The translations under genes and the position numbers were made by a program. Of a DNA stretch of 64,000 nucleotides, positions 18,393-48,138 are shown one piece after another. Below the pieces are notes generated by a model, which had not been told where the DNA came from, made no database searches, and worked only from the letters and a program-made list of their open reading frames with translations. Source of the stretch: a virus; IMG/VR virus record IMGVR_UViG_3300028394_000045, positions 87,645 to 151,644 of that record; one strand, written 5' to 3'. Every line of letters begins with the position of its first letter. The stretch's first letter is position 1.

Positions 18393-18398
18393 ACAAGG

Positions 18399-18404
18399 TA
18401 AATA
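18399..18404 (+). promoter_or_regulatory. TAAATA late-promoter-like motif
   Basis: TAAATA 7 nt upstream of the ATG at 18412; resembles the T4 late promoter TATAAATA. Confidence 0.5.
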
Positions 18405-18411
18405 AAATATC

Positions 18412-18561
18412 ATGCCAACTACAACGCCAACCAAGCCAGTGATACCTGTGCCAGCACCACGGCCCAAAAAGCCCAATGAAAATGGGACAATTTCGGTGCA
18501 AGCTCACATGAGGATCTACGATCCAAAAACACAAAAAACCTATGTGGAGGGGCGAGCATGA
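18412..18561 (+). CDS. Small 49-aa protein missing from the ORF track (MPTTTPTKPVIPVPAPRPKKPNENGTISVQAHMRIYDPKTQKTYVEGRA)
   Basis: Fills the gap and has an ATGA overlap with 18558. Its C-terminal half resembles the N-terminus of the next protein (HMRIYDPKT vs FVKIHDPNS). Confidence 0.75.
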   Translation: MPTTTPTKPVIPVPAPRPKKPNENGTISVQAHMRIYDPKTQKTYVEGRA

Positions 18562-19163: not shown

Positions 19164-19166
19164 ATA
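19159..19166 (+). promoter_or_regulatory. T4-type late promoter TATAAATA
   Basis: Exact TATAAATA 26 nt upstream of the fibre gene. Confidence 0.65.
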
Positions 19167-19192
19167 TTGATAACAGGAACAGGTAATTCAAA

Positions 19193-22181: not shown

Positions 22182-22209
22182 GTAAAGGGTCCAAAAACCC
22201 TTTACTTTT
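22182..22209 (+). terminator. Intrinsic terminator ending the structural operon
   Basis: GTAAAGGGT-ccaaaa-ACCCTTTAC 9-bp stem followed by TTTT. Confidence 0.65.
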
Positions 22210-22235: not shown

Positions 22236-22541
22236 ATGGACACAGAAAGTTTAATCTCACATGCCCGCTCTAGATTCAATCACGAATCTGCTAGACGCTT
22301 GCTTAAAGAAAAATATGAGGCTCGGATGCTGTTTGCCCACGCCGGTGGTATGTGGCGCGCTGGTCCTGAACTCTTGGTATTACTGGCCACTGTGCCACCT
22401 GGTGACGCAGTAATATTAGACTTGTACGAAACACCAGTAAAAATCAATCCTGAACAACTGAGACTCATGGCCATGCAACACTGGCAAGAACAGATGAATG
22501 CCTGGTTAGTAGAACATGATGAGTTAAGCAAAAAACGATGA
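22236..22541 (+). CDS. Hypothetical protein
   Basis: 101-aa ORF with ATGA coupling to the next gene. Confidence 0.7.
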   Translation: MDTESLISHARSRFNHESARRLLKEKYEARMLFAHAGGMWRAGPELLVLLATVPPGDAVILDLYETPVKINPEQLRLMAMQHWQEQMNAWLVEHDELSKKR

Positions 22542-23377
22542 CCACTGGTGCATTGATATTTGCGTTCAATAATGAAAAAACTGACTATATAGCCATGGCA
22601 GCTTGGTCGGCACGAAACATACACAGACATCTTGAGATTCCGGTAGCAGTGGTCACTGACTATGAATACCATGCAGATCTGTCAGTATTCGATCAAGTGA
22701 TCTTTTCAGAGTCCAGCTCAGGTGGCTCAAGGAATTTTGAAGATTACCAAGCAACCGTGACCTGGCACAACGCCGGCAGACCCGATGCATACCATCTCAC
22801 ACCCTGGCACAATACTCTATTATTGGATGCTGACTACATAGTGGCCAGCGACAATTTACGTGGCATCTGTAGCAACGGTAGAGATCTGCAGGCCTACGCA
22901 AGGTCTGTGGATGTGCATGGAAGGCAAGACCTAGATTGGTTTGGAAATCCGTTGATGCCCATGTCATGGGCCACGGTGGTGCAATTTCAAAAATGCCCAC
23001 AGGCCAAATACATATTTGATTGCATGAACATGATCAAACAGCACTGGCAGCATTACAGAGATATCTACCATATTCACAGCAGCACATACCGCAATGATTA
23101 CTCACTGAGCATGGCCATGAACATCGTGAATGGGCATGTGCTACCCCACAATGCAATCTTGGGTGCATTGACCAATGTGTATCCCAGTGACACACTGACA
23201 CAAACGCAGGAAGATTGCTATCGTATCACATGGACAGATTCAGCTGGAAAGAAACACCATGTGGATCTAGCCAATCAGGATCTGCATGCCATGGGCAAAA
23301 GAGATTTAGAGGTCATAGTTGAAAGTCATAGAAGAGCAAGGCTATCTCATAGCAGCCTGGAACTCGCCCACGGTTGA
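22538..23377 (+). CDS. GT-A fold glycosyltransferase-like protein
   Basis: VAVVTD, 'TPWHNTLLLDADY' DxD motif, YRND and C-terminal HAMGK, as in GT8/mannosyltransferase-like enzymes. Confidence 0.65.
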   Translation: MTTGALIFAFNNEKTDYIAMAAWSARNIHRHLEIPVAVVTDYEYHADLSVFDQVIFSESSSGGSRNFEDYQATVTWHNAGRPDAYHLTPWHNTLLLDADYIVASDNLRGICSNGRDLQAYARSVDVHGRQDLDWFGNPLMPMSWATVVQFQKCPQAKYIFDCMNMIKQHWQHYRDIYHIHSSTYRNDYSLSMAMNIVNGHVLPHNAILGALTNVYPSDTLTQTQEDCYRITWTDSAGKKHHVDLANQDLHAMGKRDLEVIVESHRRARLSHSSLELAHG

Positions 23378-24092
23378 TTACTTCAACTGCGCGAAGTCAC
23401 TGGCACAAACACTCAAGCACTGGCATCCTGATGCCAGGGTGTGCTTGGTCACGGATCAAGATGTCACAGATACTGTATTTGATCATGTGCGTGTGATCAC
23501 ACGAGTCAATCTTGACAATGCCTACGCAGATGATTGGCAAGTGTTCTATCAATCTCCATTCCGAGAAACCATCAAACTGGAAGCCGACATGTGGATCACC
23601 AGTTCAATCGATCACTGGTGGAACCTGTTCCGCAAGCGTGATCTGGTGATCAGCACAGGTTGCAGAACCTGGCAAGATCGGGCCAGCCCAGCAAGAAATT
23701 ATCGCCGAGTGTTTGATGCAAACAACTTGCCCGATGTGTATAACGCTATCACTTACTGGAGACTGAGCCCAACTGCAAAAGAGTTCTTTGGGCTGGTGCG
23801 TAACATATTCGAGCATTGGGCAGAGTACCGCAAACTACTGAAGTTTCCAGAAGATGTGCCATCAACTGATCTTGTGTATGCTGTGGCAGCACACATAATA
23901 GGACCCGAATCAGTGACTTTGCCGTTTGCTACATATCCCCGGATAGTGCATATGAAACGGCATCATGCTGGTACCCAAACAGAAAACTGGACCAAAGAGC
24001 TGATCTGGGAATGGGATCGAGGAAATCTGCGTGTTCAGACCCTAGCACAATCAGGAGCATTTCACTATCATGTCAAACCAACCCTTAACTGA
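23319..24092 (+). CDS. GT-A fold glycosyltransferase-like protein (paralog of the upstream gene)
   Basis: VCLVTD, 'SPFRETIKLEADM' (ExD variant), STD, VHMK, FHYH. Confidence 0.6.
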   Translation: MKVIEEQGYLIAAWNSPTVDYFNCAKSLAQTLKHWHPDARVCLVTDQDVTDTVFDHVRVITRVNLDNAYADDWQVFYQSPFRETIKLEADMWITSSIDHWWNLFRKRDLVISTGCRTWQDRASPARNYRRVFDANNLPDVYNAITYWRLSPTAKEFFGLVRNIFEHWAEYRKLLKFPEDVPSTDLVYAVAAHIIGPESVTLPFATYPRIVHMKRHHAGTQTENWTKELIWEWDRGNLRVQTLAQSGAFHYHVKPTLN

Positions 24093-24420
24093 AGAACAAT
24101 TCTGGGCTGCATTGTATGCAATGCCCGAGCCTCGACCGGTGTTCTTTAGATTGTACCACGACGATCAAGGACGTATATTATTCTACAGCATGGAAGATGT
24201 TCCAGGTACATATATTGAGATTGATGCCGAGACTTTTGCGCGGTCCTACACCAACATGAGAGTGAAGGATGGAAAGTTGATTGAAATAGCACGGACCACC
24301 AGTGTAAAACTCATTCCCGGAGACACTGGCACACCTTGTGATCCTACTGATGTGAGCATAGTGGTGTCAGAACAACAACCCACTACCAAATGGAGCAAAA
24401 GAACATATGAATCAAATTGA
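24070..24420 (+). CDS. Hypothetical protein
   Basis: 116-aa ORF overlapping both neighbours in the operon. Confidence 0.65.
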   Translation: MSNQPLTEEQFWAALYAMPEPRPVFFRLYHDDQGRILFYSMEDVPGTYIEIDAETFARSYTNMRVKDGKLIEIARTTSVKLIPGDTGTPCDPTDVSIVVSEQQPTTKWSKRTYESN

Positions 24421-25330
24421 TATAGCAGACTTAGATTGTATCTATCTCACCTACGACGAGCCACAACGTGAAGAGTTTTGGGTAAAGATAAAAAACATGA
24501 TCCCGTGGGCCAAGCGTGTGGATGGCATCAAAGGATCGGACGCAGCACACAAAGCCGCTGCCGCAGCCAGTGATACCGAGCGTTTCATCCTGGTAGATGG
24601 TGACAACTTGCCATCCGCAGATTTCTTCAACAAGACATTGCAATTCCCCACAGCTGACTATGAACGAGCAGTGTTCCGGTGGCGTGCCAGAAATCATGTG
24701 AATGGACTCATGTACGGCAACGGCGGCATCAGCTCATGGACACGTGAATTTGCAAATGCCATGCGTACCCATGAAGCCACCGACGGCCGCACAGAAACAC
24801 AAGTGGAGTTTTGCTTTGATCCGTTGTACTGGGCCATGCATGATTGCTACAGCACAACCTACCCGGCTCAATCGCCATTCCATGCATGGCGCGCTGGATT
24901 CCGCGAAGGTGTAAAGATGTGTTTGAACAAAGGTGCCCGGCCTACTGTTGAAGAATTCAAGAATCAAGTGTTGAGAAATCTCGACCATTTGACCATATGG
25001 CATAATATTGGTTCGGACGTGGAAAATGGAGAGTGGTGCATGGCTGGTTCCAGACAAGGTACCTACATGACCATGCTGACCAATTGGGATCATACGTTGG
25101 TTCAAGATTTTGATGCGTTAGCTGAAATTTGGGAAACCGTGAAAGATGTCCAACCACGCATACTAAGTAACCAGTTAGGTCCTGAGATTGGTACTCAATT
25201 GGACTTGCCAATGGCCATCCTAGAGGCTGAACAGAGTGCGTTTTTCAAATATCACTATCGATCAAATTGGCATAACCGTGGTGCCATGGTTCGAGAGATA
25301 GATGTAATACGCCAGCAAGAAGGATGGTGA
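24407..25330 (+). CDS. Glycosyltransferase-like protein (GT-A, DGD motif)
   Basis: IYLTYDEP, RVDGIKGSDAAH, FILVDGDN, NGLMYGNGG, AWRAGFREGVK; paralogous to the C-terminal domain of 41734..43947. Confidence 0.55.
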   Translation: MNQIDIADLDCIYLTYDEPQREEFWVKIKNMIPWAKRVDGIKGSDAAHKAAAAASDTERFILVDGDNLPSADFFNKTLQFPTADYERAVFRWRARNHVNGLMYGNGGISSWTREFANAMRTHEATDGRTETQVEFCFDPLYWAMHDCYSTTYPAQSPFHAWRAGFREGVKMCLNKGARPTVEEFKNQVLRNLDHLTIWHNIGSDVENGEWCMAGSRQGTYMTMLTNWDHTLVQDFDALAEIWETVKDVQPRILSNQLGPEIGTQLDLPMAILEAEQSAFFKYHYRSNWHNRGAMVREIDVIRQQEGW

Positions 25331-25331
25331 T

Positions 25332-25856
25332 ATGCTTAAAATAATCAATTTAGATTATGATTTTTCAAAGATTTTGTCTGCTGACTATGCTCAACATGAA
25401 GGTAGCTGTATCAGCCACCAGGTTTATGAACTAACAGATATCCATGATCGGTATGGAGGATTTCCTACTACCTATTGTTATGAAAATACCAAAATACATC
25501 AACTATGGTGGGAAAAAGACGATGTTGATTTTGTAGAGATTGGGCGACAATTAGGAATGGAAGTAATTACGGTCAGCAGTATTTCTCAGCCACCGGGATG
25601 TGTGATACCGCTACACCGAGATACCTTTTATCAAATCAACAAACAATATCCGGATAGAACAGAACCCAAAGTCCGTGCCAACATTTATCTTGAAGATTGG
25701 AAACTAGGACATTTTCTTCAATACGATGATGAGATAAGTGTTAAATGGAATGCAGGCGACGGACTATTGTGGGACTCTTCCCACTTGCATCTATCAGCCA
25801 ATGCAGGCATGCAAAACAAGTACACATTACAAGTATCGGGATTTCTAATAGAATGA
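25332..25856 (+). CDS. 2OG-Fe(II) oxygenase-like (double-stranded beta-helix) protein
   Basis: PPGCVIPLHRD (HxD) ... LHLSANAG (distal His) ... KYTLQVSG. Confidence 0.7.
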   Translation: MLKIINLDYDFSKILSADYAQHEGSCISHQVYELTDIHDRYGGFPTTYCYENTKIHQLWWEKDDVDFVEIGRQLGMEVITVSSISQPPGCVIPLHRDTFYQINKQYPDRTEPKVRANIYLEDWKLGHFLQYDDEISVKWNAGDGLLWDSSHLHLSANAGMQNKYTLQVSGFLIE

Positions 25857-26800
25857 GATTTAAAATTATTCCAGCTGATACTTTTATCTGGAATCTGTCA
25901 GAGTTGGTTGATTTTTTAATAGAATATCAAAATCAAGACATTGTTATAATCAATGGCACCGAAGGATGCTGTTCGACCACCATTGGGTTATATAAGTGGT
26001 TGGATAAATTTAAATTTAGTAATGTTACCATAGAAACCGGTAACATATTGGAAAGTCATAATCAATACAAAGTTTCCTATACGGCCCCGTGGAAATTTCT
26101 CGACATAGCAAGACCGATTGATCGGGCTCATCATATATGGAATCGTCAATCGATATTTGGGACGTTATATGGTCGCCCGCTATGGCATAGAATAGGTATT
26201 GCATCCCATCTACTATCGTCGCATAAGTCTATCAGTGAGATTGGTTGTTTGATTAATCCTGCAGATTCAGACCAACGAGAACTATTTGAAATTCTAGAAT
26301 TGTGGAAATATGATCCTAATAGCTTAATTAAATTTTCTAATGTGTTTTCTCAGTTTCCGTGCTACCATCAAGATGTTGATCAATACACACCTGGTGCAAC
26401 ACTAACTGACGGATTTGTTAAACAAACGGAAAGAGTATACAAGAATTTCTTCATTGACATAGTGGCAGAAACTTACACTAGCGGTAATTCTTTTTTCATA
26501 ACTGAAAAAACAGTACGTCCCATGCTGCTGAAAAAACCATTGATTTTAATGGGTGCAAAAGATTGCCTAAATTATCTAAGGCAAATGGGATTCAGAACAT
26601 TCGGCGATTTTTGGGACGAAACATATGATGGGTATGAAGGCCGTGAGAGATATTTGCGTATATTAGATCTAATAGATTGGATCGCAGGGCATAGTCACGA
26701 TCGGTTGGAAACCATGTATTGGGATATGCAATATACATTAGATCACAATTATAATCTACTGATTAATCAGCACTACAACACAGATATAACAAAAATATAA
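25853..26800 (+). CDS. GT10 (fucosyltransferase-motif)-like protein #1
   Basis: IVAET...FITEKTVRPML...YLRQMGFRTF..FWDETYD. Start moved to the ATG at 25853 (ATGA overlap). Confidence 0.55.
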   Translation: MRFKIIPADTFIWNLSELVDFLIEYQNQDIVIINGTEGCCSTTIGLYKWLDKFKFSNVTIETGNILESHNQYKVSYTAPWKFLDIARPIDRAHHIWNRQSIFGTLYGRPLWHRIGIASHLLSSHKSISEIGCLINPADSDQRELFEILELWKYDPNSLIKFSNVFSQFPCYHQDVDQYTPGATLTDGFVKQTERVYKNFFIDIVAETYTSGNSFFITEKTVRPMLLKKPLILMGAKDCLNYLRQMGFRTFGDFWDETYDGYEGRERYLRILDLIDWIAGHSHDRLETMYWDMQYTLDHNYNLLINQHYNTDITKI

Positions 26801-28167
26801 TGAATAAAAGCAATTTTCTATCATCTGCTGAACAGATGCACCGCGATTTGGGGCCAGCATTGTGCTTGGCCAAATGGAAACAGGTGAGCCTACATTTGCC
26901 CACTGGACTCAATAACAGTTGTTATCATCCACCACTACACACAATTGATCCAGTGGCAATAGCAGTTAATCCTGCGGCTCTGCATAACACTGATCATAAA
27001 AAATCTCAGCGAAAGATAATGTTGCAGCAAGAACGTCCTAAAGAATGTAGTTATTGCTGGAACATGGAAGACCTAGGCCGGCTGAGTGATCGACACTACA
27101 GATCAGGTGAGCCGTGGGCAGCCGTGGATTTTGAACAGATAAAAAATTCGACAGGAGATGAAGATGTTGTTCCCAGTTATGTTGAAGTCAATTTCAATCA
27201 TGCTTGCAATCTGCGGTGCAGTTATTGCAGCCCTCAGTTTAGTAGTTCATGGGCAGATGAAGTGTCTAGACTTGGTGCATATCCTACCCTGGTGCCTCAT
27301 AATGCTCCTGAGCATTTCACTGGGAGCCGTCGCCCTATACCTGCCCGCGAACACAATCCTTATGTAGAAGCATTCTGGTCATGGTGGCCCACTCTGTACC
27401 CTGAACTCAAGCACTTCCGCATGACCGGTGGTGAGCCCTTGATGGATCGCAACACCTATCGAGTGTTTGACTATGTGTTGGATCGCCCCAAGAGTGATTT
27501 ACACCTAGCAGTGACTTCCAACTTTAGTGTAGAGCCGGAACTATCCAGCAAATACTTTGACTACGTTAAAAGATTATGCGACACTGATATTGAACATTTC
27601 ATGCAGTATGTGAGTGTTGATTCGGGCATCGGGCCTCAAGCCGAATACATCCGACATGGATTGGATTTTGAACGCTTACAGAACAATGTGGAAACATATC
27701 TTCGAGATATTCCACATCGCAATAGCCTTACATTTATTGTGACCATGAACAACTTGTCAGTCACAGGATTTCTACCACTGATGAAGTGGATCTTAGAGTT
27801 GAGAAAAACCCATAGCCGAACATATCAGCGTGTGTGGTTTGATACACCTGTGCTGCGACAACCTGCGTGGCAAAGCCTACAGACCCTGCCGGAAAGCTAT
27901 GCTGCAAAGCTAGAACAAGCACGAGACTTCATGTTGGCCAATCTAGAAACAGAATCAGACTCATTCCATGGATTCAAGGACTATGAAGTTCAACGACTGG
28001 AGCGTGACATAGCCTGGATGCGATCAACCGTAAACGCAAGTACCCAAGATCTGGCAGACTTCTATAGATTTTTCACCGAACACGATCGTCGCAGAGGCAC
28101 AGACTTTGAGACCACATTTCCCGAAATGCTCACCTGGTGGCGACAATGCAGCTTACATGCTAGGTAA
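26800..28167 (+). CDS. Radical SAM protein with N-terminal Cys-rich (twitch/SPASM-like) domain #1
   Basis: CNLRCSYC, TGGEP, TSNF; N-terminal C..SCYH..ECSYCW. Confidence 0.9.
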   Translation: MNKSNFLSSAEQMHRDLGPALCLAKWKQVSLHLPTGLNNSCYHPPLHTIDPVAIAVNPAALHNTDHKKSQRKIMLQQERPKECSYCWNMEDLGRLSDRHYRSGEPWAAVDFEQIKNSTGDEDVVPSYVEVNFNHACNLRCSYCSPQFSSSWADEVSRLGAYPTLVPHNAPEHFTGSRRPIPAREHNPYVEAFWSWWPTLYPELKHFRMTGGEPLMDRNTYRVFDYVLDRPKSDLHLAVTSNFSVEPELSSKYFDYVKRLCDTDIEHFMQYVSVDSGIGPQAEYIRHGLDFERLQNNVETYLRDIPHRNSLTFIVTMNNLSVTGFLPLMKWILELRKTHSRTYQRVWFDTPVLRQPAWQSLQTLPESYAAKLEQARDFMLANLETESDSFHGFKDYEVQRLERDIAWMRSTVNASTQDLADFYRFFTEHDRRRGTDFETTFPEMLTWWRQCSLHAR

Positions 28168-29272
28168 GTACCGAATCATAGTGGATGAATGGGCTGAGGT
28201 TTGGGATCTACTCAAGCCCTATGCCGACGGCAGCTTCTGGCGCTGGAGTGATCTTGATCTTGATCCTGATGCAGTGTATGTTGTTGGTCGTGTGGTGCTC
28301 AAAGAGAACTGGCAATCCATAACTGACTGGGCACGAGCACATCCAGGTCGCATAGTGTTTTCCAATCCCGCCGAAGGATCGCAAACCATATTACTGCAAC
28401 TCAAACGGTTGGTGATTTCTGAACAAATAAAGTCAGGAGAGATATTGCTGCTGACGTCAGGCGATCTTGAACCAGGTTTGAACTACTGCAAGACTGATTG
28501 TTATTTCTCCAACATCGTAGAATACCTTGAAAACATCAGCGCACATGAATCGTGGTCGCAGGTGTATCACAAAACAAACAAGCCATACGACTTTTTGTTC
28601 TTGAATGGGCGACTACGTCCGCATCGTAAGTATCTCATTGATCAACTACGACAACATCAGCTGCTGGATCGTGCGCTATGGACCAACCTTGGCGATCAAG
28701 TGGAGATGAGTTGGACCAGTGCGTTAGAGACCGAACTTGTCGAGCCAGTGAGATTGTTGCCTGAACAATATGAAATACCTCGTGCTTTGCCCAACATGCA
28801 TTCATTGCCCGCAGGATTTGTCAAGCATCATTTGTTTGCCAACACCTGGGGCGATGCCATAGTCAATCCCGCAGCATACGTAGACACATCCTTTTCACTG
28901 GTCACAGAGACCATATTTGATTATCCACACACGTTCCGCACTGAGAAGATCTGGAAACCCATGATCATGTGCCATCCATTTGTGGCAGCTGCCAACCGTG
29001 GGTATTATCGAGATTTGCATGCAGCAGGGTTTGAAACATTTGGCAAATTGATTGACGAGTCATTTGATTACATAGACGATCCTACCGATCGTGCCAACAG
29101 AGTGGTCGCAGTTGTTAAAGATATATGCTATAATGGTGCTGAGGCTTTCTTGGAGGCTGCTAGAGTTACGTGTAAATACAACTATCAGCAGCTTCGTGAG
29201 CATAATAAACAAGAACGAGCCCTGCTACCCGCAAATTTACTCCAACACATTGATGACCGATCTAGAATTTAA
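28157..29272 (+). CDS. GT10-like protein #2
   Basis: FLFLNGRLRPHR, LVTET...RTEKIWKPMI...GFETF..LIDESFD. Likely start is the ATG at 28157. Confidence 0.55.
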   Translation: MLGKYRIIVDEWAEVWDLLKPYADGSFWRWSDLDLDPDAVYVVGRVVLKENWQSITDWARAHPGRIVFSNPAEGSQTILLQLKRLVISEQIKSGEILLLTSGDLEPGLNYCKTDCYFSNIVEYLENISAHESWSQVYHKTNKPYDFLFLNGRLRPHRKYLIDQLRQHQLLDRALWTNLGDQVEMSWTSALETELVEPVRLLPEQYEIPRALPNMHSLPAGFVKHHLFANTWGDAIVNPAAYVDTSFSLVTETIFDYPHTFRTEKIWKPMIMCHPFVAAANRGYYRDLHAAGFETFGKLIDESFDYIDDPTDRANRVVAVVKDICYNGAEAFLEAARVTCKYNYQQLREHNKQERALLPANLLQHIDDRSRI

Positions 29273-30584
29273 GCAACAGGTGTTAGACGCCAAGAGTGCA
29301 AGTTTTTGTGCAGCAAAATGGTACAACGCTACCATCTGGTTGGGCAGTGGCATGACTACCAGTTGTCATCACCCGCCGGCCCATTTGGTGGACATTGATA
29401 AAGTCCGGGCCAACCCTAGGCTGCTGCACAATACTGATCAGAAGAAAGAAGATCGTCGCAAGATGATAGCAGGTGAACGACCCAGTGGCTGTGAGTATTG
29501 TTGGAAGATAGAAGACATGGGCAGTGATGCTGTCAGTGACAGAGTATACAAGAGTAAAATTTACCCAATAGAGTTGTTAAATGAAGCACATACCAATCCG
29601 CCTGATCAAGACTTCAACCTCCGTACCTTGGAGATTGCTTTTGACCGTACTTGTCAATTTGCTTGCAGTTATTGTAATCCTGCATTCAGTAGCACTTGGG
29701 TTCGGGACATACGCAAAAATGGACCCTATCGAGATCTTGTGTCTGATGGTCGTAATCACTTCACTCACGATCATGGCAGTAGTCAGCTTTATAGCTTCGG
29801 TGAAACCAATCCTTATGTGGAGGCGTTCTTTGCGTGGTGGGAGTCAGACCTACATCGAACCCTCCAAGAACTGAGAATAACCGGTGGCGAACCCTTGATG
29901 TCGGGCGAGACTTGGAAACTGATTGATTGGTTCCGAAACAATCCAGGGCGCAGCCAAACACGCCTGGCCATCAATTCAAACCTGGGCACAGCAGTGGATC
30001 TAGATCGATTGCTGAACAGCATCGATGGGTTAGAAGTAGATTTGTATACATCTAACGAAAGTGTAGGCCTGCAAGCAGAATACATCAGAGATGGATTAGT
30101 GTGGGATGATTGGGCCAACAATGTAGAACGCTTGCTGGATAGCAGAAAGTTCCGTGGCATACACATCATGAACACCATCAATGCATTGTGTTTGTATTCG
30201 CTGGATCAGTTCTTGGAATGCATCATGAACTGGAAAATAGAATACGGACGTGATGCTGTGAGTTTCACTCTAAACATCTTGAGATTCCCCAGCTTTCAGT
30301 CGCCCTTGGTGCTGCCCGACGAACTACGCACAATATTTCGCAAGCGGTTGGAAGTATGGCTGGACGCTTGGTGGGACAGTGAATTCTTGCATGAGCACGA
30401 AGTCAATCATGTGCAACGCTTGATTGATTATCTCGACATTGTGAAGACCCCACATTCAGAAGCATTTGACCGGCCTCAACTGCTAAATGACTTCAAGCAG
30501 TTCTACACACAATACGATCAACGTCGAGGCAAAGTCTTTAGCCTGGCATTTCCTGCACTAACCCCCTGGTATGACGCACTATGA
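29253..30584 (+). CDS. Radical SAM protein #2
   Basis: CQFACSYC, TGGEP, NSNL; N-terminal FCAAKW..SCHH..GCEYCW. Likely start MTDLEF at 29253. Confidence 0.9.
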   Translation: MTDLEFKQQVLDAKSASFCAAKWYNATIWLGSGMTTSCHHPPAHLVDIDKVRANPRLLHNTDQKKEDRRKMIAGERPSGCEYCWKIEDMGSDAVSDRVYKSKIYPIELLNEAHTNPPDQDFNLRTLEIAFDRTCQFACSYCNPAFSSTWVRDIRKNGPYRDLVSDGRNHFTHDHGSSQLYSFGETNPYVEAFFAWWESDLHRTLQELRITGGEPLMSGETWKLIDWFRNNPGRSQTRLAINSNLGTAVDLDRLLNSIDGLEVDLYTSNESVGLQAEYIRDGLVWDDWANNVERLLDSRKFRGIHIMNTINALCLYSLDQFLECIMNWKIEYGRDAVSFTLNILRFPSFQSPLVLPDELRTIFRKRLEVWLDAWWDSEFLHEHEVNHVQRLIDYLDIVKTPHSEAFDRPQLLNDFKQFYTQYDQRRGKVFSLAFPALTPWYDAL

Positions 30585-32299
30585 CACTAGAAGAAAAAAT
30601 AACAGAACTCAAATCTCAATTTGATATAGTTGCGATAGTTAATCTTGATCCATGGCACGATCTGCACGAACATGATAAAAAGTCTTGGATGAGAGAAACG
30701 CTTGGGCCTATATACCGAGACTCTTATCTCGACAAACAGCGTATTTTGTTTACAGTCTCGCGAGGAGGTGTATACGCAGATCAACAAAGTCTGGCAGGGC
30801 AGTTGATCACACAACTACAGCGCAGACTCAACGAAGTAGACATATCTAATTTTTTTGTTATAGTACTGACCAACGATGTAACAATACAAGAATCTTATAT
30901 TGCTCATTATCAAGAATTTTCAACCGATATGGTTCCAATGACGATTGACGTTTATTCTGTTGAAATCACGCAGCGTCGTAGACAAGATAAGATGTCTAAG
31001 AAAACAAAACTCGGTAGCTATCAATATACGCATCTAGATCCAATGAAGATTGACATTGAAGATCTTACTGAACAAGAACAATTTTTACTCACCAAAAGTT
31101 CTACATTTTGCATGTACCCTTGGATACATTTTCATGCTTATCCCACCGGGTCGGCGCACCCATGTTGCATGGCAGATATGCAATTTCCAATTGGGGATAT
31201 GAGAAAAAATACCATTAGAGAAATATGGAATCAGGAACCTCTTAAAGAAATACGCAAGCAGATGCTGAATGAACAAGCAGTAACAGCTTGTAACAGATGC
31301 TACGAACAAGAATCCACAGGATTTGTCAGTGGAAGGATGAGTGCTAATAAACATCACGGCCATCTAATCAACCGTATACATGAAACCAAACCAGATGGAA
31401 CATTAGACAGATTTGAACTGACCTACTGGGATATAAGATTCTCAAATCTTTGCAATCTCAGCTGCCGCAGTTGCGGTCACATCTTTTCAAGTTCATGGTA
31501 TAAAGACCAGGCCAAACTAGCAGGGCCTGAATGGAAAAAAACTCACAAGGTATTGAACTATGCAGGTAGATTTGAAACTGATGCATGGGATCAACTGGTA
31601 GAACATATCGAGCATGTGGAGCAAATCTACTTTGCAGGGGGCGAACCCTTGCTAATGGAAGAACATTACAAGATTCTTGATGAACTGGTTCGGCAAAAAA
31701 AGTTCAATGTTCGATTGATTTATAATACTAATTTTACACATACCAATCTCAAAGATCGGAGCGTGTTCGAATATTGGAAACTATTTGATTCTGTCAGTGT
31801 AGGCGCCAGTCTCGACGGTTCAGGGCGTTATGGAGAATACATACGTAAAGGTACCGAGTGGAACAAGATAGAACAAAATAGAATTGACATGTTAAAGATC
31901 TGCCCGGATGTAGATTTTTACATCAGCCCTACTCTTAGTATAATGAATGCGTGGCACTTGCCCGATTTTCACCGAGACTGGGTCGAGCGAGGCTTTATTA
32001 AACCTCAGGATCTCAATGTAAATATCTTACAAGACCCACCGCACTATCGAATTGATATCGCTACTGTAAAGTACAAACAACGACTACGGTTAAAATATCA
32101 AGAACATCTGGAATGGTTAGAAAAAAATCAAGATCCTCTAGAACGTGCCACTGAAGGATTTAAATCGGCTATTAATTTTATGATGGCAACAGATAACACA
32201 CATCTCATCGACACCTTTTGGCGTAAGACTCATGAACTGGATATCATACGGTCAGAAAATATTAGCGATATTATACCCGAACTTGAAGCATTAAAATGA
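30581..32299 (+). CDS. Radical SAM protein #3 with an extra ~170-aa N-terminal domain
   Basis: CNLSCRSC, AGGEP, YNTN; FCMYPW..PCC..CNRC auxiliary domain. Confidence 0.9.
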   Translation: MTLEEKITELKSQFDIVAIVNLDPWHDLHEHDKKSWMRETLGPIYRDSYLDKQRILFTVSRGGVYADQQSLAGQLITQLQRRLNEVDISNFFVIVLTNDVTIQESYIAHYQEFSTDMVPMTIDVYSVEITQRRRQDKMSKKTKLGSYQYTHLDPMKIDIEDLTEQEQFLLTKSSTFCMYPWIHFHAYPTGSAHPCCMADMQFPIGDMRKNTIREIWNQEPLKEIRKQMLNEQAVTACNRCYEQESTGFVSGRMSANKHHGHLINRIHETKPDGTLDRFELTYWDIRFSNLCNLSCRSCGHIFSSSWYKDQAKLAGPEWKKTHKVLNYAGRFETDAWDQLVEHIEHVEQIYFAGGEPLLMEEHYKILDELVRQKKFNVRLIYNTNFTHTNLKDRSVFEYWKLFDSVSVGASLDGSGRYGEYIRKGTEWNKIEQNRIDMLKICPDVDFYISPTLSIMNAWHLPDFHRDWVERGFIKPQDLNVNILQDPPHYRIDIATVKYKQRLRLKYQEHLEWLEKNQDPLERATEGFKSAINFMMATDNTHLIDTFWRKTHELDIIRSENISDIIPELEALK

Positions 32300-33510
32300 A
32301 GATACCTCACGACAAATTTTGTGTATTGCCCTGGATCAGCTTAGAAGCCAGTCCAATAGGCACTGTGAGACCATGTTGTCTAGCCGATGATGAAATTGTT
32401 GATAATGACGGAAATAAATTTAAACTAGGTCAAGCTGTTTTTGATCATATACAAAATAGCGATCACATGCAACAGCTACGTGAAGAATTCTTAGCAGGTG
32501 AAAAACCACAAACTTGCCGCAAGTGTTGGAATGAAGAAAGATCAGGTCGCACTAGCAAACGCATGCACACACTGGATAGACTGAAGCATGTGCTGACAGA
32601 TGAGTCTTGGAGCTCAGATGCCAAGCCTTTGATGTTCTTGGATCTTAAATTGGGCAACATCTGCAATCTCAAATGTAGGATATGTGGCCCCTGGTCCAGC
32701 TCGCAATTTGCCAGTGAAGAGATCTCTTGGATGCCACGTGAAGAACAAAAGAGCAGCCATGCGTATGAGATGCTGAGAGCAGGAGCCTGGCCCAAAGAAA
32801 ACGATCATTTCTGGTCCGAGATCGATTTGGTGCTCACAGACATACGCTATATCGAATTCACTGGTGGCGAGCCATTCATGATTGATCAACACTTTGACAT
32901 GTTGCAAGGCATAGTGGATCGTGGCATCGCCGGTCAGGTAGAGATACACTACAACACCAATGGCACACACTACCCTGAACGTGGGGAAAATATCTGGAAG
33001 CATTTTAAAACAGTAGAAGTGGCATTTAGTATAGACGATGTGGGTGCTAGATTTGAATATCAGCGCACCAATGCGGACTGGGCAGTGGTGTTGGACACGA
33101 TTGTGAGTTTTCAATATCTCAAAGATCACATGCCTAACTTGCAGTTACAATGTTGCAGCACAGTGAATATTTTCAATGTGCGCTACCTTGATCAGCTAGC
33201 TCACTGGCTTGCATTGCAACGATTTGACTTTGTGTATTGGAACATGATGCACGATGCTTGGTATTTTAGTATAGCCACTTTGCCTGATTCTGCAAAAACA
33301 CAGATCATCTCTCACTTGGAGTCAGCAGATGTTCCTGCACAGTACCAAGATGAATTTGTACGCATAGCAGATTTCATGCGTAACGGCGCATCCACGGATG
33401 GATTCATGACCCGAATGAAGATTGCAGATCTTGACCGTAAACGCAATCAAGATTTTGAACAAACCAGTCCTGAGATGGCTGTATTGATACAATACAAAAA
33501 GAATGGCTAA
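32296..33510 (+). CDS. Radical SAM protein #4
   Basis: CNLKCRIC, TGGEP, YNTNG; FCVLPW..PCC..CRKC. Confidence 0.9.
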   Translation: MKIPHDKFCVLPWISLEASPIGTVRPCCLADDEIVDNDGNKFKLGQAVFDHIQNSDHMQQLREEFLAGEKPQTCRKCWNEERSGRTSKRMHTLDRLKHVLTDESWSSDAKPLMFLDLKLGNICNLKCRICGPWSSSQFASEEISWMPREEQKSSHAYEMLRAGAWPKENDHFWSEIDLVLTDIRYIEFTGGEPFMIDQHFDMLQGIVDRGIAGQVEIHYNTNGTHYPERGENIWKHFKTVEVAFSIDDVGARFEYQRTNADWAVVLDTIVSFQYLKDHMPNLQLQCCSTVNIFNVRYLDQLAHWLALQRFDFVYWNMMHDAWYFSIATLPDSAKTQIISHLESADVPAQYQDEFVRIADFMRNGASTDGFMTRMKIADLDRKRNQDFEQTSPEMAVLIQYKKNG

Positions 33511-34516
33511 GCTGGTATTTGTGTACGATCCCAATGGGGCACCAGAAGAAAACATTCGAATGATCATGCCCCTGGGCATGAACTTTGAGTTTTTTGATCC
33601 TACTATAACATACTCATCAGATACTGTGTTTTATTATGACATGTATGGCCCTGGGCATAACTGGGTCAGACAGCACTTGCAACAAGGTTATCGTGTAATA
33701 TTTGATGCCAAGAATGAACATTACATTCATTACGTCATGCATTCTGTGCTGATAGACTTCTTGCAGCATCCTGGACAAGGCTGTTTTATCATATCAGGGC
33801 ACGAGCCCAATCCCTTGCCAGGCGTTGAGATCATTGCAACCCCTTATTGGTACTGGATCATGGACCAGATAAAAATGACTCATACCAAAGTAGATCAAAT
33901 TGCTTGGCAATCAAAATCAAATAAAAAGAAATTCTTCATGAGCCTGGGAAAAAGCCGGGTGGAACGCGACTATGTATTTGACAGCCTTGGCATTCATTTA
34001 TCTGACAGTATCTATAGTTATCGAGCTCGTGGCATTGGATTGCCTGATGATTGCACTAATTCAGTATTGGTGCAACGCTATATTAATCCTGCCTGGATAC
34101 ACGACACCGCACTCACATTGGCCGTGGAAACCTATGTGGATGAGACTGCAATCACAGGCTACAGCCTGACACGTCAAGATCATTTGTTTTTGTGTGAAAA
34201 AAGCTACAAACCAATGGCAGCACAGCACCCTTTTCTCATGGTATCCACACCGGGTAACTTGGCCTACCTGCGCTCGCAAGGGTTTGAAACATTTCCTGAA
34301 TTGTTTGATGAAAGTTACGACAATGTCGTTGATTGGAAACAACGTGTGATGAATATAATCTCAGTATTGGCTGACTTTGATACATGCAGTGTCGATCAAC
34401 CTATTGTTCTACAAAAGCTGCGGCACAATCAAGCTAGATTTTTTGATAGATCAATAACAACAGATCTGGCATTTCGCACAATACAAAAACCTTTGTTTGA
34501 ATTTATAAATGCATAA
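33503..34516 (+). CDS. GT10-like protein #3
   Basis: LAVET...FLCEKSYKPMA...YLRSQGFETFPELFDESYD. Confidence 0.55.
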   Translation: MAKLVFVYDPNGAPEENIRMIMPLGMNFEFFDPTITYSSDTVFYYDMYGPGHNWVRQHLQQGYRVIFDAKNEHYIHYVMHSVLIDFLQHPGQGCFIISGHEPNPLPGVEIIATPYWYWIMDQIKMTHTKVDQIAWQSKSNKKKFFMSLGKSRVERDYVFDSLGIHLSDSIYSYRARGIGLPDDCTNSVLVQRYINPAWIHDTALTLAVETYVDETAITGYSLTRQDHLFLCEKSYKPMAAQHPFLMVSTPGNLAYLRSQGFETFPELFDESYDNVVDWKQRVMNIISVLADFDTCSVDQPIVLQKLRHNQARFFDRSITTDLAFRTIQKPLFEFINA

Positions 34517-35807
34517 ACCAGCAACCATGTGCCTTGCACCTTGGGTGCATACATATCTTTCTCCACAGACTGAACGACGTATGTGCTGTGCGTCAAGAGA
34601 ACCTGCGCAGAACTTTCGACAATACATCGATACTGAATCAGGTACCGGAACCTACATTCCTATAACATTAAAGCAGCATTGGAACAGCGATCACATGCGA
34701 TCAGTTCGTCGTCGCATGATGGCCGGAGAACGCTTGCCTGAATGCGAAGTGTGCAATGATCAACTGCTGAATACAGATGTATATCGCACATACTTTGACC
34801 AGCTGTTTCAACATAAATACCTGGCAATTTTAGAACAAACAGATGCGGATGGCAGAACCACCATGCAGCCGGTTAGTTGGGATTACAGATTCAGTAATCT
34901 CTGCAATTTCAAATGTAGAACTTGCGGAGACATGTTGAGCAGTAGTTGGGAATCAGAGCAAAAGACACACCACATGGTCAATTGGTCCAATCCCAAAAAC
35001 AACTGGATGCGTCCTGAGGTAAGACAACAGATCTCTCAGTTTCAAGACAGCCAAATTGAACAAGAGTTTTCGGATGCTGTGGAGCAGCACAGAGTAGAAG
35101 AAGTGTATTGGGTAGGTGGAGAGCCGTTGATGTATGAACAGCACTGGCGCTACATGCAACGCATACTAGAACTAGGAGACGGGCCAAGAGTATATGCTAG
35201 ATATAATACAAATTTATCCAGGGTGGAGTATCGTGGCATCAATCTCTATCGTGATATTTTGCCTGGGCTACGCGATTGGCAGATATGTGCAAGTCTCGAC
35301 GGCACAGGCTCAGTTGGAGAATACATTAGAACAGGCCTTGACTATGATCGATGGGTTGACAACTTCAGTCAAGCAGTTGCGATCCAACGTCACCCACGTC
35401 AGGTCAGAATTGACTTTACGCTTACTCTGCCCGGAATGTTCGAAGTTGGCCCAATTACAAAACTTGCTAGACAACTTGAAGTAGATATACTGGCCAAAGT
35501 TATCTTTAGTTTCTCTCCAGAAATCATCATGAGCCCACTGGCGCTGCCTAGACACTTGTTGGAACCTTGGTTGGATGAACTGATAGCGGATACCACAGGT
35601 GCCATGCGAGATGTGCTAGCACAATTGAAGAACCGTCCCACATTTGAAGAACAATGGCCCGACACTTATCAGCAAAGTCTTGCTCAAGGCCGTGATCGTG
35701 TGCTACAGTTAGAGCAGATAAGAACACAATCTGTGACCATGACTGATATCCTATCAGCCAGGCCAGCAGTATTAGAATGGTGGATGAACATTGACAAACT
35801 CAATTGA
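34509..35807 (+). CDS. Radical SAM protein #5
   Basis: CNFKCRTC, VGGEP, YNTN; MCLAPW..MCC..CEVC. Confidence 0.9.
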   Translation: MHKPATMCLAPWVHTYLSPQTERRMCCASREPAQNFRQYIDTESGTGTYIPITLKQHWNSDHMRSVRRRMMAGERLPECEVCNDQLLNTDVYRTYFDQLFQHKYLAILEQTDADGRTTMQPVSWDYRFSNLCNFKCRTCGDMLSSSWESEQKTHHMVNWSNPKNNWMRPEVRQQISQFQDSQIEQEFSDAVEQHRVEEVYWVGGEPLMYEQHWRYMQRILELGDGPRVYARYNTNLSRVEYRGINLYRDILPGLRDWQICASLDGTGSVGEYIRTGLDYDRWVDNFSQAVAIQRHPRQVRIDFTLTLPGMFEVGPITKLARQLEVDILAKVIFSFSPEIIMSPLALPRHLLEPWLDELIADTTGAMRDVLAQLKNRPTFEEQWPDTYQQSLAQGRDRVLQLEQIRTQSVTMTDILSARPAVLEWWMNIDKLN

Positions 35808-36828
35808 AATAGATCTTCGAAGCAAAAACAATCAGATTCTGACTTTGCACATTGATGTAGAGAACAGCAGCCTTTCGCAAAAATGGTTATCTGCGTTGGA
35901 TCATTTGATCCAAAACAATTATCATCTAGAAAAAAACTACTGTTGGCTAGGATGGGCCGAAGGCGATCGAACATTGGAATATGTTTGTGAGCAGATCAAT
36001 CGAAGCATCAGAGCTATCAATTCTGCAAAATTAGGATACGTGATCCAGGATGTTTTCACACCGGAAAACACTGTGACAGATGATCTAGGAGTCTGCCAAG
36101 ACCACATGAATCAATTGCATAGATACTTCGAGGATCTTCAAGGTACCTCGGGCGCAATGAGTCCTTACTATACCCACGCGGATGATACCACGCGATGGCA
36201 TATACGACAGTTAAATCTGCTGTGTCACGAACATGAAAGTCTGGTGTTGAGTATTCGCAAATTAAAAACAGCACCTGAGTGGCGTAGGCCTTCGCAACTG
36301 ATGTGCTGGTTGCAAGCGCCAAGATTTGTATTAGATACCAAAGATTATGAATTGTTTGGCATTGAAACTATCAATAGATCATTGGGCGGCGTATATGTGG
36401 GTGTAAATAAAGCAGTGGGCAAAAATCATTGGGAAGTATTCCATGATGAAGGGCGCGACAGCCGAGTAGGCGAATTAGTTACCAGTGCATTACGGCCGCA
36501 GACTGAAGCAGCAGGGGATTTTGACATCGAATGGGCCAACGACCCTGGGTCATACCATTGGCAGATCAAGGCGCTGGCTGAGTTCAGAACATGGCTTGTA
36601 CAAAACGGATTTGACCCTGACGATAAATCATTGACAATTGGGCATCCAAAAGTAGCTCAAGTAGATTTGATTCGCAGTTTTGGTACAGTCGATCCAGATG
36701 AAATATGGCAACAATTAGCAGCTCATCAGGATGTGTATAAAATAAGGACCAGTTGTACTCAAGCTACATATGAGTATCGGTGGAGCGATGATGATTACGA
36801 ATTGCAACAAATAAGGAGTATGCGATGA
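35791..36828 (+). CDS. Hypothetical protein with paired NxLHxxFE / LNxxxHxxE motifs
   Basis: 345-aa ORF (TTG start) coupled within the operon; possible metal-binding His/Glu motifs. Confidence 0.65.
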   Translation: MTNSIEIDLRSKNNQILTLHIDVENSSLSQKWLSALDHLIQNNYHLEKNYCWLGWAEGDRTLEYVCEQINRSIRAINSAKLGYVIQDVFTPENTVTDDLGVCQDHMNQLHRYFEDLQGTSGAMSPYYTHADDTTRWHIRQLNLLCHEHESLVLSIRKLKTAPEWRRPSQLMCWLQAPRFVLDTKDYELFGIETINRSLGGVYVGVNKAVGKNHWEVFHDEGRDSRVGELVTSALRPQTEAAGDFDIEWANDPGSYHWQIKALAEFRTWLVQNGFDPDDKSLTIGHPKVAQVDLIRSFGTVDPDEIWQQLAAHQDVYKIRTSCTQATYEYRWSDDDYELQQIRSMR

Positions 36829-36926
36829 ATTGGATTAAAAACATATGGAGCAGGATCATGCTAGAGATCCGCTATCGCAAAAAACTGCGAGAACTGCGCA
36901 AGCGAGACCCGTTTATCTACAAATGA
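36825..36926 (+). CDS. Small basic 33-aa protein missing from the ORF track (MNWIKNIWSRIMLEIRYRKKLRELRKRDPFIYK)
   Basis: AAGGAG SD upstream and ATGA overlaps at both ends. Confidence 0.75.
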   Translation: MNWIKNIWSRIMLEIRYRKKLRELRKRDPFIYK

Positions 36927-38404
36927 ACTATGTGGGTATATCAGCCGGATTCCATGACGCTGCGGTCAGTGTGATCAATCAGGCTGGCGATATACTATTT
37001 GCTGCTCACAGCGAACGCTACAGCAAGAAAAAACACGATCAAAATCTCTGCGCAGATGTGTTGATAGATGCATTGTCTCACGTAAAATTTCCTGAGATTG
37101 AATATCACTATTATGAACGTCCGTGGCTCAAGGCCATGCGTCAATTCTACAGCGGAGAAGGATTTCGCTGGCCCACATGGAATCGACTGCTGGGACCTAC
37201 ATATGATTTCTTAGGACGTCCTCGAATCAACACACATGATCATCATCTGTGCCATGCAGCAGCAGGATTCCAGACCAGCGGATTTGACGAAGCAACTGTG
37301 ATCATAATAGATGCCATTGGTGAGTTCGATACCATAACCATATGGGATGCAGCATATGATAACGACACCGGTCGTGCTGAGTATAAAAAATTATGGAGTC
37401 AGCGTTACCCACATTCAATTGGGTTGATGTATTCGGCTATTACTGCTCGGGTGGGACTGCGACCATTGGATGAAGAGTACATACTCATGGGCATGGCAGC
37501 CTACGGCGAACCCAAGTATCTAAGAGAAATGCAGCAGGCATTTTTGAACCCTAGAGAAAAATTACAATTTACTCAGAATCTTCATGTGGGAGTAGGTGAT
37601 GATTTCTTGCCCCATGCTGATCCAATGGACATTGCCTGTAGCGCACAGCTGGTGGCAGAGCAGTTGATCCGCAATGTACTGGGTCGTGCCAGAGGTGTGG
37701 GTCGCAGTAGGAATCTAGTGTATGGTGGTGGTGTGGCCTTGAACTGTGTGGCCAATCGAATGCTAGGAGATTACTATGAACGCATATGGATCATGCCGAA
37801 TCCTGGTGATGCTGGCAACAGTCTTGGGTCTGCTTGCCTAGGATACGGAAAAAAAGTCACCTGGAATAATAGTTTCCTGGGCCATGATATTCCCGGCAGT
37901 TATCCTGTCAATGCCGTATTGGATCATCTCCTCACAGACAAGATAGTAGGTGTGGCATCAGGCCGAGCAGAGTTTGGACCACGAGCACTGGGCAATCGCA
38001 GTCTTCTTGCAGATCCCAGGGGATATTCGATCAAGAACCGTGTGAATGAAATCAAACGCAGACAAAAGTTTCGACCATTTGCACCTGTGATCTTAGAAGA
38101 GTTTGCGAATGATTACTTTGAAATGCCTTATGGATTTAAGACCAGTCGTTACATGCAAACCATAGCTGCATGCAAGAACCCAGATCGGTTTCCAGCCATA
38201 GTGCATGTGGATGGCACCAGCAGAGTGCAAACTGTTCCCAAGGACGGATCGGGCATACGTGAGCTGCTGGAAAAATGGTATTTCATGACCAAGTGCCCTA
38301 TGCTGCTTAACACCAGTTTGAACATACGTGGTGAGCCCATGGTGAACGATCGCGCAGATGCCGATAGATTTCAACGCCTGTACGGCGTCAAGGTGTGCAG
38401 TTAG
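36923..38404 (+). CDS. Carbamoyltransferase (NodU/CmcH/TobZ family)
   Basis: GFHDAA, SERYS, HHLCHAA, DAIGE, GGVALNC, GDAG, EFGPRALGNRS, RPFAP, LNTSLN. Start corrected to MNYVGIS at 36923. Confidence 0.93.
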   Translation: MNYVGISAGFHDAAVSVINQAGDILFAAHSERYSKKKHDQNLCADVLIDALSHVKFPEIEYHYYERPWLKAMRQFYSGEGFRWPTWNRLLGPTYDFLGRPRINTHDHHLCHAAAGFQTSGFDEATVIIIDAIGEFDTITIWDAAYDNDTGRAEYKKLWSQRYPHSIGLMYSAITARVGLRPLDEEYILMGMAAYGEPKYLREMQQAFLNPREKLQFTQNLHVGVGDDFLPHADPMDIACSAQLVAEQLIRNVLGRARGVGRSRNLVYGGGVALNCVANRMLGDYYERIWIMPNPGDAGNSLGSACLGYGKKVTWNNSFLGHDIPGSYPVNAVLDHLLTDKIVGVASGRAEFGPRALGNRSLLADPRGYSIKNRVNEIKRRQKFRPFAPVILEEFANDYFEMPYGFKTSRYMQTIAACKNPDRFPAIVHVDGTSRVQTVPKDGSGIRELLEKWYFMTKCPMLLNTSLNIRGEPMVNDRADADRFQRLYGVKVCS

Positions 38405-39438
38405 AGATAGGTCTCTAATCCACCACGACGACGTATATCTTGTGTGCAGCAACTGATGCCACCATCCCAGAAGTAACTGTGTCTTAGTTCACTAATGATA
38501 GATTCTATCTTATGCTTGCGACAGTAGTCAAAAACTTCCTTGTTATAAGCACTGAATATCACGTGACTTTCATCTAGCACAAGACAATTAACATCAAACA
38601 CAGTCTCGGCAACAAATCCTGTCCATTTGGTTAGATAGGTATTTACAAATTCAGTAAATTCGGGAGTAGGTGTTTGACCTTGTACATACCAGGCACCTGG
38701 TGATTGTTCGTATTTGAACTTGCCAACCTCCATTGCAGCCCAGATCGAGCTATCCCAGATCTTGCACACATCCCATCCAGGAAAGTCTGCGGCCAAGTTT
38801 AAGTTCACATCGTGCTTGCTGCTCAACAACACCCCGGGCTTGAGTATGGCAAACACAGCATCACCATGTCCGTCTGTTATGGCTTCGTGTATGCGATACT
38901 CTGGTCCTAACACATTATCCACTATCCAGCGAGACTGATCAGGACGCAAGAAATCACTGTTGTCAAAGAACACATCTCTCCCCACACGAACAATGCACGA
39001 TGCCGATGCTTGATTGAGTATACAGTCCGCATCCCAATTTCTGCCATGTGGATTGATCACTCCACCCGGTTGTGCAGCTTCATACTCTTTACATAGACTA
39101 TCCAGTTCTTGTATTGGCAGCACACGCAGCAACTTGTCGCCCAGTGTGATCTGCCAGTCTCGTGGAGTAAGTGGAGGCAAGGGAGCGCCGCCGCCGGCAA
39201 TCTGATGTTGTATGAAATTGCGTTTATTTGGAAGATCGGGTCTACGCACACGCGCACCAAATTGCTCAATAGTCTTCTGTAATGCAGATAGATCTTCTTC
39301 AGTCTCTACCAGTATCTGTTGCAGTTGATTGCGAACCTGAGCGTTTTCAATAAAATCAAAGTAGTCTGGTGTGTAAGCGCGGCCCACGATCACTTCTTCA
39401 AGTGGTTGCCAGCTGGTGTAGGAATTAATAGTGTTCAT
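38401..39438 (-). CDS. Amidinotransferase (glycine/inosamine-phosphate amidinotransferase family)
   Basis: NSYTSWQPLEEVIVG, PRD, GHGD, C-terminal DGGISCCTQD with the catalytic Cys of the pentein fold. Confidence 0.85.
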   Translation of the reverse strand: MNTINSYTSWQPLEEVIVGRAYTPDYFDFIENAQVRNQLQQILVETEEDLSALQKTIEQFGARVRRPDLPNKRNFIQHQIAGGGAPLPPLTPRDWQITLGDKLLRVLPIQELDSLCKEYEAAQPGGVINPHGRNWDADCILNQASASCIVRVGRDVFFDNSDFLRPDQSRWIVDNVLGPEYRIHEAITDGHGDAVFAILKPGVLLSSKHDVNLNLAADFPGWDVCKIWDSSIWAAMEVGKFKYEQSPGAWYVQGQTPTPEFTEFVNTYLTKWTGFVAETVFDVNCLVLDESHVIFSAYNKEVFDYCRKHKIESIISELRHSYFWDGGISCCTQDIRRRGGLETYL

Positions 39439-45917: not shown

Positions 45918-45918
45918 G

Positions 45919-48109: not shown

Positions 48110-48138
48110 AGTGTAGCACACCAAGTTCTACTTTGCAA
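48110..48138 (-). promoter_or_regulatory. Sigma70-like promoter
   Basis: TTGCAA-N17-TACACT, 5 nt before the ATG at 48104. Confidence 0.5.

Follow-up and report, generated by a model that had tools for sequence, protein, structure and literature searches.

Five radical SAM genes in conserved order among variable transferase-like genes in a putative glycan island of a jumbo phage

Do radical S-adenosylmethionine (SAM) enzymes and glycosyltransferase-like proteins that are encoded side by side in a phage genome act in pairs, one adding a sugar and the other modifying it? The question is raised by a run of eight genes in IMG/VR virus record IMGVR_UViG_3300028394_000045, a linear sequence of 151,644 bases with a CheckV completeness estimate of 44%, whose source is a jumbo phage by its gene content and relatives. 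The DNA analyzed here is a stretch of 64,000 nucleotides (nt) of this record (positions 87,645–151,644; hereafter "the window", whose numbering is used unless stated otherwise). Listing of open reading frames (ORFs), family scans, and paralog BLAST and alignment showed that positions 25853–35807 of the plus strand carry, in order, G1, R1, G2, R2, R3, R4, G3 and R5, where G denotes a gene for a transferase-like protein of GT-B fold that bears a TEK motif, and R a radical SAM gene of the N-terminal-twitch type. A sequence-only reading had recognized the same order, and interpreted each G and the R that follows it as a transfer-then-modify pair. The comparative data presented here fit better with a conserved core of five radical SAM genes and variable transferases, in a phage glycan island located behind tail-fibre and adhesin genes, an interpretation to which we assign a probability of about 0.6.

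The gene run and its alternation

The run begins with G1 (25853–26800), which encodes a protein of 315 amino acids (aa) and whose ATG overlaps the stop codon of the upstream gene. It continues with R1 (26800–28167), G2 (28157–29272), R2 (29253–30584), R3 (30581–32299), R4 (32296–33510), G3 (33503–34516) and R5 (34509–35807). The start of G2 was set to the ATG at 28157, so that its first 11 nt are shared with R1, and that of R2 to the ATG at 29253. From G1 to R5, successive genes overlap by 1, 11, 20, 4, 4, 8 and 8 nt, which bears out the earlier statement that each G in the run overlaps or abuts a downstream R. Overlapping or abutting plus-strand genes are continuous from 22236 to 38404, and the run probably belongs to a single long operon with translational coupling, within a glycan-building island of the phage. 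A terminator-like hairpin of nine pairs followed by a T-run is found on the plus strand at 22182–22205, just past a gene that ends at 22179. A promoter and terminator scan returned both kinds of site at chance level, and no terminator-like site stood out in 22236–38404.

Random orders of three G and five R genes place an R after every G in 10 of 56 cases (P = 0.18), and within the eight-gene run the alternation alone is not beyond chance. Shuffling over the whole span of the G and R genes in the window gave P ≈ 0.02, a value that mostly reflects the clustering of these genes. The whole record contains nine R genes, all of the NCBIfam family NF033640 (N_Twi_rSAM), and five G genes, and only three of the five G and three of the nine R are members of a "pair". 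Two of the TEK-family paralogs identified by paralog comparison, G4 (39425–40606) and G5 (40572–41735), both on the minus strand, have no adjoining R, and R6 (55082–56359, minus strand; NF033640 239 bits, PF04055 E = 4e-10) is solitary. Together, R6 and the genes at record positions 17685–20487 and 74447–75535, outside the window, account for four N_Twi_rSAM genes that are remote from the array and from any G.

Radical SAM order and transferase turnover in related phages

A pattern scan of IMG/VR yielded at least 563 viral contigs with relatives of the G genes, and 80 loci were examined. Hidden Markov model (HMM) scans of all ORFs in these loci identified 146 G and 155 R genes, to which deeper HMMs added only seven weak R and one G. 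The R proteins were typed against R1–R5 of the window. All 19 of the non-redundant loci that had at least two confidently typed R genes kept the order from R1 to R5, with zero to three G genes inside. Arrays without any G inside were found in loci L012, L024, L045 and L068, and R5 orthologs were present without G3 in L003, L011 and L013. In one near-complete relative (354 kb, 98% complete), with three G genes and eleven R genes plus one at 168.3 bits, just below the curated NF033640 cut-off of 170 bits, five contiguous R genes occupy 67.0–73.4 kb, at a distance of at least 6 kb from the nearest G. Another relative (374 kb, 100% complete) has ten G genes and seven R genes at or above the cut-off, with only one G inside the array. 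The G:R counts are thus unmatched, being 5:9 here and about 10:7 and 3:11–12 in these two relatives.

Between phages, the R orthologs are 64–84% identical, compared with 27–69% for the adjacent G orthologs, and the G identities are mosaic: in L003, both R1 and R2 are 84% identical to those of the window, with the intervening G2 at 41%. Since the R genes are nearly constant while the adjoining G genes are replaced, the R substrate is probably independent of which G is present, for example a nucleotide-sugar-level or core intermediate. As judged from these sequence comparisons, the stable unit is likely to be the ordered set of five R genes, carried by many uncultured jumbo phages, and not the G–R pair.

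An R gene was found within 10 kb of a G in 53 of the 80 loci, showing that the G and R families are linked at the scale of the island. Immediate adjacency had a more restricted distribution. In the 14 closest loci, 29 of the 36 G genes are followed by an R, and the trees contain well-supported positional ortholog clades for G1 (99% by the Shimodaira–Hasegawa-like approximate likelihood ratio test, SH-aLRT), G2 and G3, as well as for each of R1–R5; this adjacency is one inherited arrangement, that is, non-independent synteny. The other 66 loci had an R after the G in 6 of 105 cases, an R before it in 20 of 105 and no R beside it in 83 of 105, which is below the level of a within-island shuffle. 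In L011, L013, L015 and L018, extra genes are present between G and R. The adjacency across phages, which the sequence-only reading had proposed to test, therefore holds in the closest clade only, with 6 of 105 elsewhere and with R arrays that have no G; gene positions in the two near-complete relatives point the same way.

The sequence-only reading had also proposed to look for natural fusions of its GT10-like and radical SAM genes and for co-evolution of the partners. No G–R fusion was present among the 301 G and R ORFs of the loci or among the 150 best G representatives, nor did any of six longer G-family proteins contain a Radical_SAM domain, although the latter is weak evidence by the search tool's own note. 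The identities of the G proteins and of their adjoining R proteins gave Spearman rho values of 0.38, 0.10 and −0.39, all non-significant, and thus showed no correlation in the divergence of the partners. In maximum-likelihood trees, G1 was not joined with G2, and R1 and R2 were sister groups; an approximately unbiased (AU) test did not reject a G1 + G2 clade (p = 0.198).

In the pair model, each G would add a sugar to a growing chain, where the adjoining R would then edit it, and the array would have arisen by duplication of a two-gene unit. The overlap of all three G genes of the run with a downstream R speaks for it, as do the retention of the G1–R1, G2–R2 and G3–R5 positions in about nine related phages, the sister relationship of R1 and R2, and the G1 + G2 clade that the AU test allows. 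However, adjacency is lost outside the closest clade, R arrays without G and G genes without R exist, R5 can occur without G3, no fusions were found, partner divergence shows no significant correlation, copy numbers do not match, inserted genes separate G from R in some loci, and the pattern of the run would arise by chance with P = 0.18. The comparative data thus largely refute the pair model, which we regard as improbable. What stands of the transfer-then-modify idea is that G and R genes share one tight operon and sugar island and frequently co-occur; the adjacency data, the lack of fusions and the copy numbers speak against the duplicated two-gene unit.

The two protein families

R1–R5 are all full-length members of NF033640 and cover model positions ≈1–398, with scores of 316, 291, 401, 329 and 288 bits, respectively. 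R2 is 32% identical to R1 over 457 aa, and the orthologs of R1 in relatives are 65–86% identical to it. The cysteines C123, C127 and C130 of the CxxxCxxC motif and the GGEP sequence G190–P193 (R4 numbering) do not vary among the five paralogs or 103 relatives, and the N-terminal cysteines C9, C27, C74 and C77, which belong to an auxiliary-cluster domain, are invariant among the R paralogs. A SPASM-type domain (PF13186) precedes the Radical_SAM domain in R3 and R4. In R3, the NF033640 match spans residues 173–570, with PF13186 at 177–241 and Radical_SAM at 286–428; in R4, PF13186 was found at residues 9–78. The corresponding match in R5 (residues 8–83, E = 0.0081, 16.9 bits) is below the threshold of 21.5 bits. 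R3 is extended at its N terminus by about 170 aa (30581–31090, plus strand) that have no family match, and most R3 orthologs in relatives are shorter. Like other members of NF033640, R1–R5 and R6 score above the curated cut-off and have a four-cysteine auxiliary domain on the N-terminal side of the CxxxCxxC core. To this named family, the present data add an organization as five orthogroups in fixed order across phages.

An AlphaFold2 model of R5 (predicted local distance difference test score, pLDDT, 91.8) matched the folds of enzymes of the SPASM/twitch class, namely SkfB (Z 12.5), BlsE (11.8), MoaA (11.5), CteB (11.4), anSME (10.9), viperin (10.7), SuiB (10.4), DesII (9.3) and AprD4 (7.0). 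The maturases of RiPPs and proteins in this list (SkfB, CteB, anSME and SuiB) raise the possibility that the R proteins are protein or peptide maturases that cross-link, epimerize or oxidize virion proteins, such as fibres, or a small precursor, with the G proteins glycosylating the same protein. It would agree with the position of the island directly behind tail-fibre genes and with the established finding that SPASM and twitch enzymes commonly act on peptides (Grell et al. 2015, cited in PMC5332604). Yet the scores of BlsE, MoaA and viperin are as good as those of the peptide-acting enzymes, the neighboring genes encode nucleotide-sugar and sugar-decorating enzymes, and neither a recognition domain of the RRE/PqqD type nor a family of precursor-like peptides was detected in the family scans. 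We consider a maturase role unlikely.

The best 120 of the listed 90%-identity clusters were at least 79% identical to R5. Matches of R4 to GenBank phages were limited to 22–26% identity, in seven records. The nearest GenBank phage record for the radical SAM family is that of Vibrio phage K566 (OZ196521.1, 255 kb; locus L089), in which four radical SAM genes of the NF033640-type family at 161.5–168.3 kb are interleaved with genes for hypothetical proteins that do not belong to the TEK family. In the literature library searched, there was no paper on NF033640, no description of the system and no biochemical fact on either the R or the G family. One publication mentions 12 radical SAM genes in the genome of a marine T4-like phage and assigns them no function (PMC5332604).

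BLAST and alignment showed that G1–G5 are paralogs that have in common a C-terminal block, VxET...FLTEKTxKP...PF..G..G.L.YLR..GFxTF...DESYD. Neither the G genes nor 100 of their relatives had a Pfam, PHROG or NCBIfam match. The family is large, with 13,641 cluster representatives at E ≤ 0.001. Among its best 120 relatives (90% clustering) none had a Pfam domain, and those with names were called "hypothetical protein", except for one evident mis-annotation. Among the 150 best G-family representatives, 42 were tandem G–G fusions (≈680–1020 aa), which suggests bifunctional chain-building enzymes.

The AlphaFold2 model of G3 (pLDDT 94.2; predicted template modeling score, pTM, 0.91) has the two Rossmann domains of a GT-B fold according to Foldseek and VIA-align. 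The matches included T4 β-glucosyltransferase (Z 13.3), an Actinobacillus glucosyltransferase (13.0), Helicobacter pylori α1,3-fucosyltransferase (11.9), FUT9 (11.4), plant FucT13 (11.1), FUT11 (10.5) and T4 α-glucosyltransferase (10.5), with GT10 structures at ranks 3, 4, 11 and 28 (Z 10.5–11.9). The H. pylori enzyme (5zoi) aligned over 257 residues with a root-mean-square deviation (rmsd) of 3.8, and human FUT9 (8d0o) over 246 residues with an rmsd of 4.0. When an alignment of 100 G sequences was compared with six Bacteroidota GT10 proteins in hhalign, VxET...FLTEK...P..G of the G family fell on CxEN...YxTEK...P..G of GT10, where α1,3-fucosyltransferases have their donor-site motif (FEN...YxTEK); the C-terminal pattern in common is acidic-x(n)-TEK-x(9-10)-P-x(3-4)-G, but the profile comparison was not significant (P = 0.058, probability <1%). 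The nearest named Atlas clusters carry the GT10 domain PF00852, at scores of only 0.80–0.81. PF00852 itself was not matched by any G at E ≤ 0.01, by 100 family members at E ≤ 0.1, or anywhere in the 151-kb record at E ≤ 10. The G proteins differ from GT10 further in having ET for EN and an extra conserved GFxTF...DESYD block, and their N-terminal halves are unalignable, even between G paralogs. The earlier label "GT10-like" thus holds for the fold, may hold for the ET...TEK motif and fails for the GT10 family model. On the predicted structure and the motif, we describe the G proteins as a putative transferase-like family of the GT-B fold whose donor-site motif resembles that of GT10, but which is not demonstrably a member of GT10.

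The top structural match of G3, T4 β-glucosyltransferase (1c3j; rmsd 4.2 over 270 residues), suggests another role, in which the G proteins would glycosylate modified DNA bases, as the T4 glucosyltransferases do, and the R proteins would tailor the appended groups. T4 α-glucosyltransferase is also among the matches, and a gene for ThyX (48128–48796) lies near the island. However, the identity to the T4 β-enzyme is only 7%, the Z scores of the DNA glucosyltransferases are within 1–2 units of dozens of ordinary GT-B enzymes, and nothing in the match points to a DNA substrate. The 151-kb record, at its 44% completeness, contains no ThyA-type thymidylate synthase or pyrimidine hydroxymethylase (PF00303), the G–G tandem fusions suggest chain building, and the tail-fibre position and the amino-sugar, amidino and carbamoyl genes are better suited to a glycan. 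DNA hypermodification is thus a very improbable function for these genes.

Sequence searches of the PDB with G profiles gave chance-level matches only. In GenBank phages, the region had no counterpart at the DNA level, and tblastn searches with G3 and G5 returned nothing; by these searches, no cultured phage in the GenBank collection appears to carry the G family. A single-protein scan of cellular genomes for G found only two contigs, both from one metagenome-assembled genome (MAG), Haliscomenobacter sp. EUL_031. These contigs (NZ_JBBAKG010000001.1 and ...003.1, 183 and 148 kb; loci L081 and L082) both contain the island, with G5 orthologs that are 68–71% identical and the same G/R layout. The MAG has 19 G-family matches over five contigs. 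The two contigs are probably mis-binned jumbo-phage contigs, and possibly provide a lead to the host.

The island and its possible product

Upstream of the run are an ORF of 5046 aa and, directly upstream, a tail-fibre-like protein. R5 is directly followed by a gene for a conserved protein (35791–36828, plus strand) without Pfam, PHROG, NCBIfam, PDB or Atlas match, which is present in 27 of the 80 loci at up to 74% identity. Next are a NodU/NolO-type carbamoyltransferase gene (36845–38404, plus strand; PF16861 E = 2e-47, PF02543 2e-35, phrog_1601 7e-88) and an amidinotransferase gene (38401–39438, minus strand), whose product matched L-arginine:glycine amidinotransferase (7e-14), StrB1 (2e-11) and SxtG (4e-8) in a phmmer search of the PDB. 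The amidinotransferase gene is arranged tail-to-tail with the carbamoyltransferase gene and adjoins two TEK-family genes. A nucleotide-sugar block on the minus strand (43933–47516) encodes two short-chain dehydrogenase/reductase (SDR) epimerases/dehydratases (PF01370, 4e-38 and 1.5e-44), a DegT-type aminotransferase (PF01041, 8e-54) and a PIG-L deacetylase (PF02585, 3e-14). Residues 510–723 of a 737-aa protein (41734–43947, plus strand) resemble a well-conserved 307-aa protein encoded upstream of G1 (24407–25330, plus strand) with 25% identity (E = 9e-9), and neither protein has a family match. A PDB sequence search with these two proteins and the one encoded at 35791–36828 returned nothing usable.

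The predicted enzyme content of the island is that of a pathway for the synthesis and decoration of amino sugars. A mixture of radical SAM enzymes, DegT aminotransferases, PIG-L deacetylases, amidinotransferases, carbamoyltransferases and other transferases is typical of aminoglycoside and aminocyclitol pathways. The island combines all of these, and resembles aminoglycoside-type clusters also in the matches of the R5 model to BlsE (Z 11.8), DesII (9.3) and AprD4 (7.0), BtrN being another enzyme of such clusters. It differs from them in that the auxiliary-cluster domain of the R proteins is N-terminal, not C-terminal, in having five radical SAM paralogs instead of one, and in its phage setting behind tail-fibre genes; furthermore, no inositol or 2-deoxy-scyllo-inosose synthase was identified in the island. 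Virion glycosylation clusters, such as those for the mimivirus fibril glycans and for the capsid and tail of mycobacteriophages, consist of viral nucleotide-sugar enzymes and glycosyltransferases beside structural genes. The island likewise has nucleotide-sugar enzymes and transferase-like genes beside structural genes, but we know of no radical SAM array in those clusters.

From the observed gene order, family membership and folds and the comparative pattern of gain, loss and conservation, we infer a substrate, a reaction order and a target as follows. R1–R5 would catalyze a conserved succession of radical reactions, with one common substrate that is a sugar or derives from a nucleotide sugar. 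The G genes evolve fast; at the junctions of the core they may be inserted, replaced or missing, and they also occur far from any R. Their products would next attach the resulting units, with acceptors or linkages that vary from phage to phage. Decoration of the product may fall to the island's amidino-, carbamoyl-, amino- and deacetylating enzymes, and the likely target would be the virion surface or fibres.

Several points weigh against this interpretation. The loci were chosen via G, and many of the contigs are short or fragments. G–R adjacency is kept in the closest clade (29 of 36), where particular G and R genes may be functionally coupled. The fold matches of R5 fail to separate enzymes that act on sugars or nucleotides (BlsE, MoaA, viperin) from peptide maturases (SkfB, CteB, anSME), their Z scores lying within about 2 units of each other. 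The likeness of the G proteins to GT10 is statistically weak in both comparisons (hhalign P = 0.058; Atlas scores of 0.80–0.81). Finally, NF033640 and the G family are both without an assigned product, substrate or target.

A bolder version of the radical-core interpretation, doubtful but possible, is that R1–R5 constitute an undescribed five-step radical pathway to an unusual sugar or aminocyclitol-like unit that is amidinated, carbamoylated and aminated, and that the TEK-family GT-B proteins attach to the fibres in phage-specific patterns. As part of the same tentative proposal, the TEK family, with its ≈13,600 sequence clusters and no entry in the searched libraries of Pfam-A, PHROGs and NCBIfam, would be a previously unrecognized GT-B family. 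If this were true, the phage would produce its own surface glycan resembling aminoglycosides, which would take part in recognizing or evading the host. The rapid turnover of the transferases is what diversifying selection on a structure such as a surface glycan would be expected to produce.

The pairing of one transferase with one editor would have offered a simple rule for reading such islands, but it does not hold. More useful for experiments is the conserved, ordered core of five radical SAM genes from a family that has never been assayed, a core present in hundreds of jumbo phages from the environment, and Vibrio jumbo phages like K566, with their distant radical SAM relatives, may provide a first experimental handle. 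Naming the G family would annotate thousands of phage genes that are currently listed as "hypothetical".

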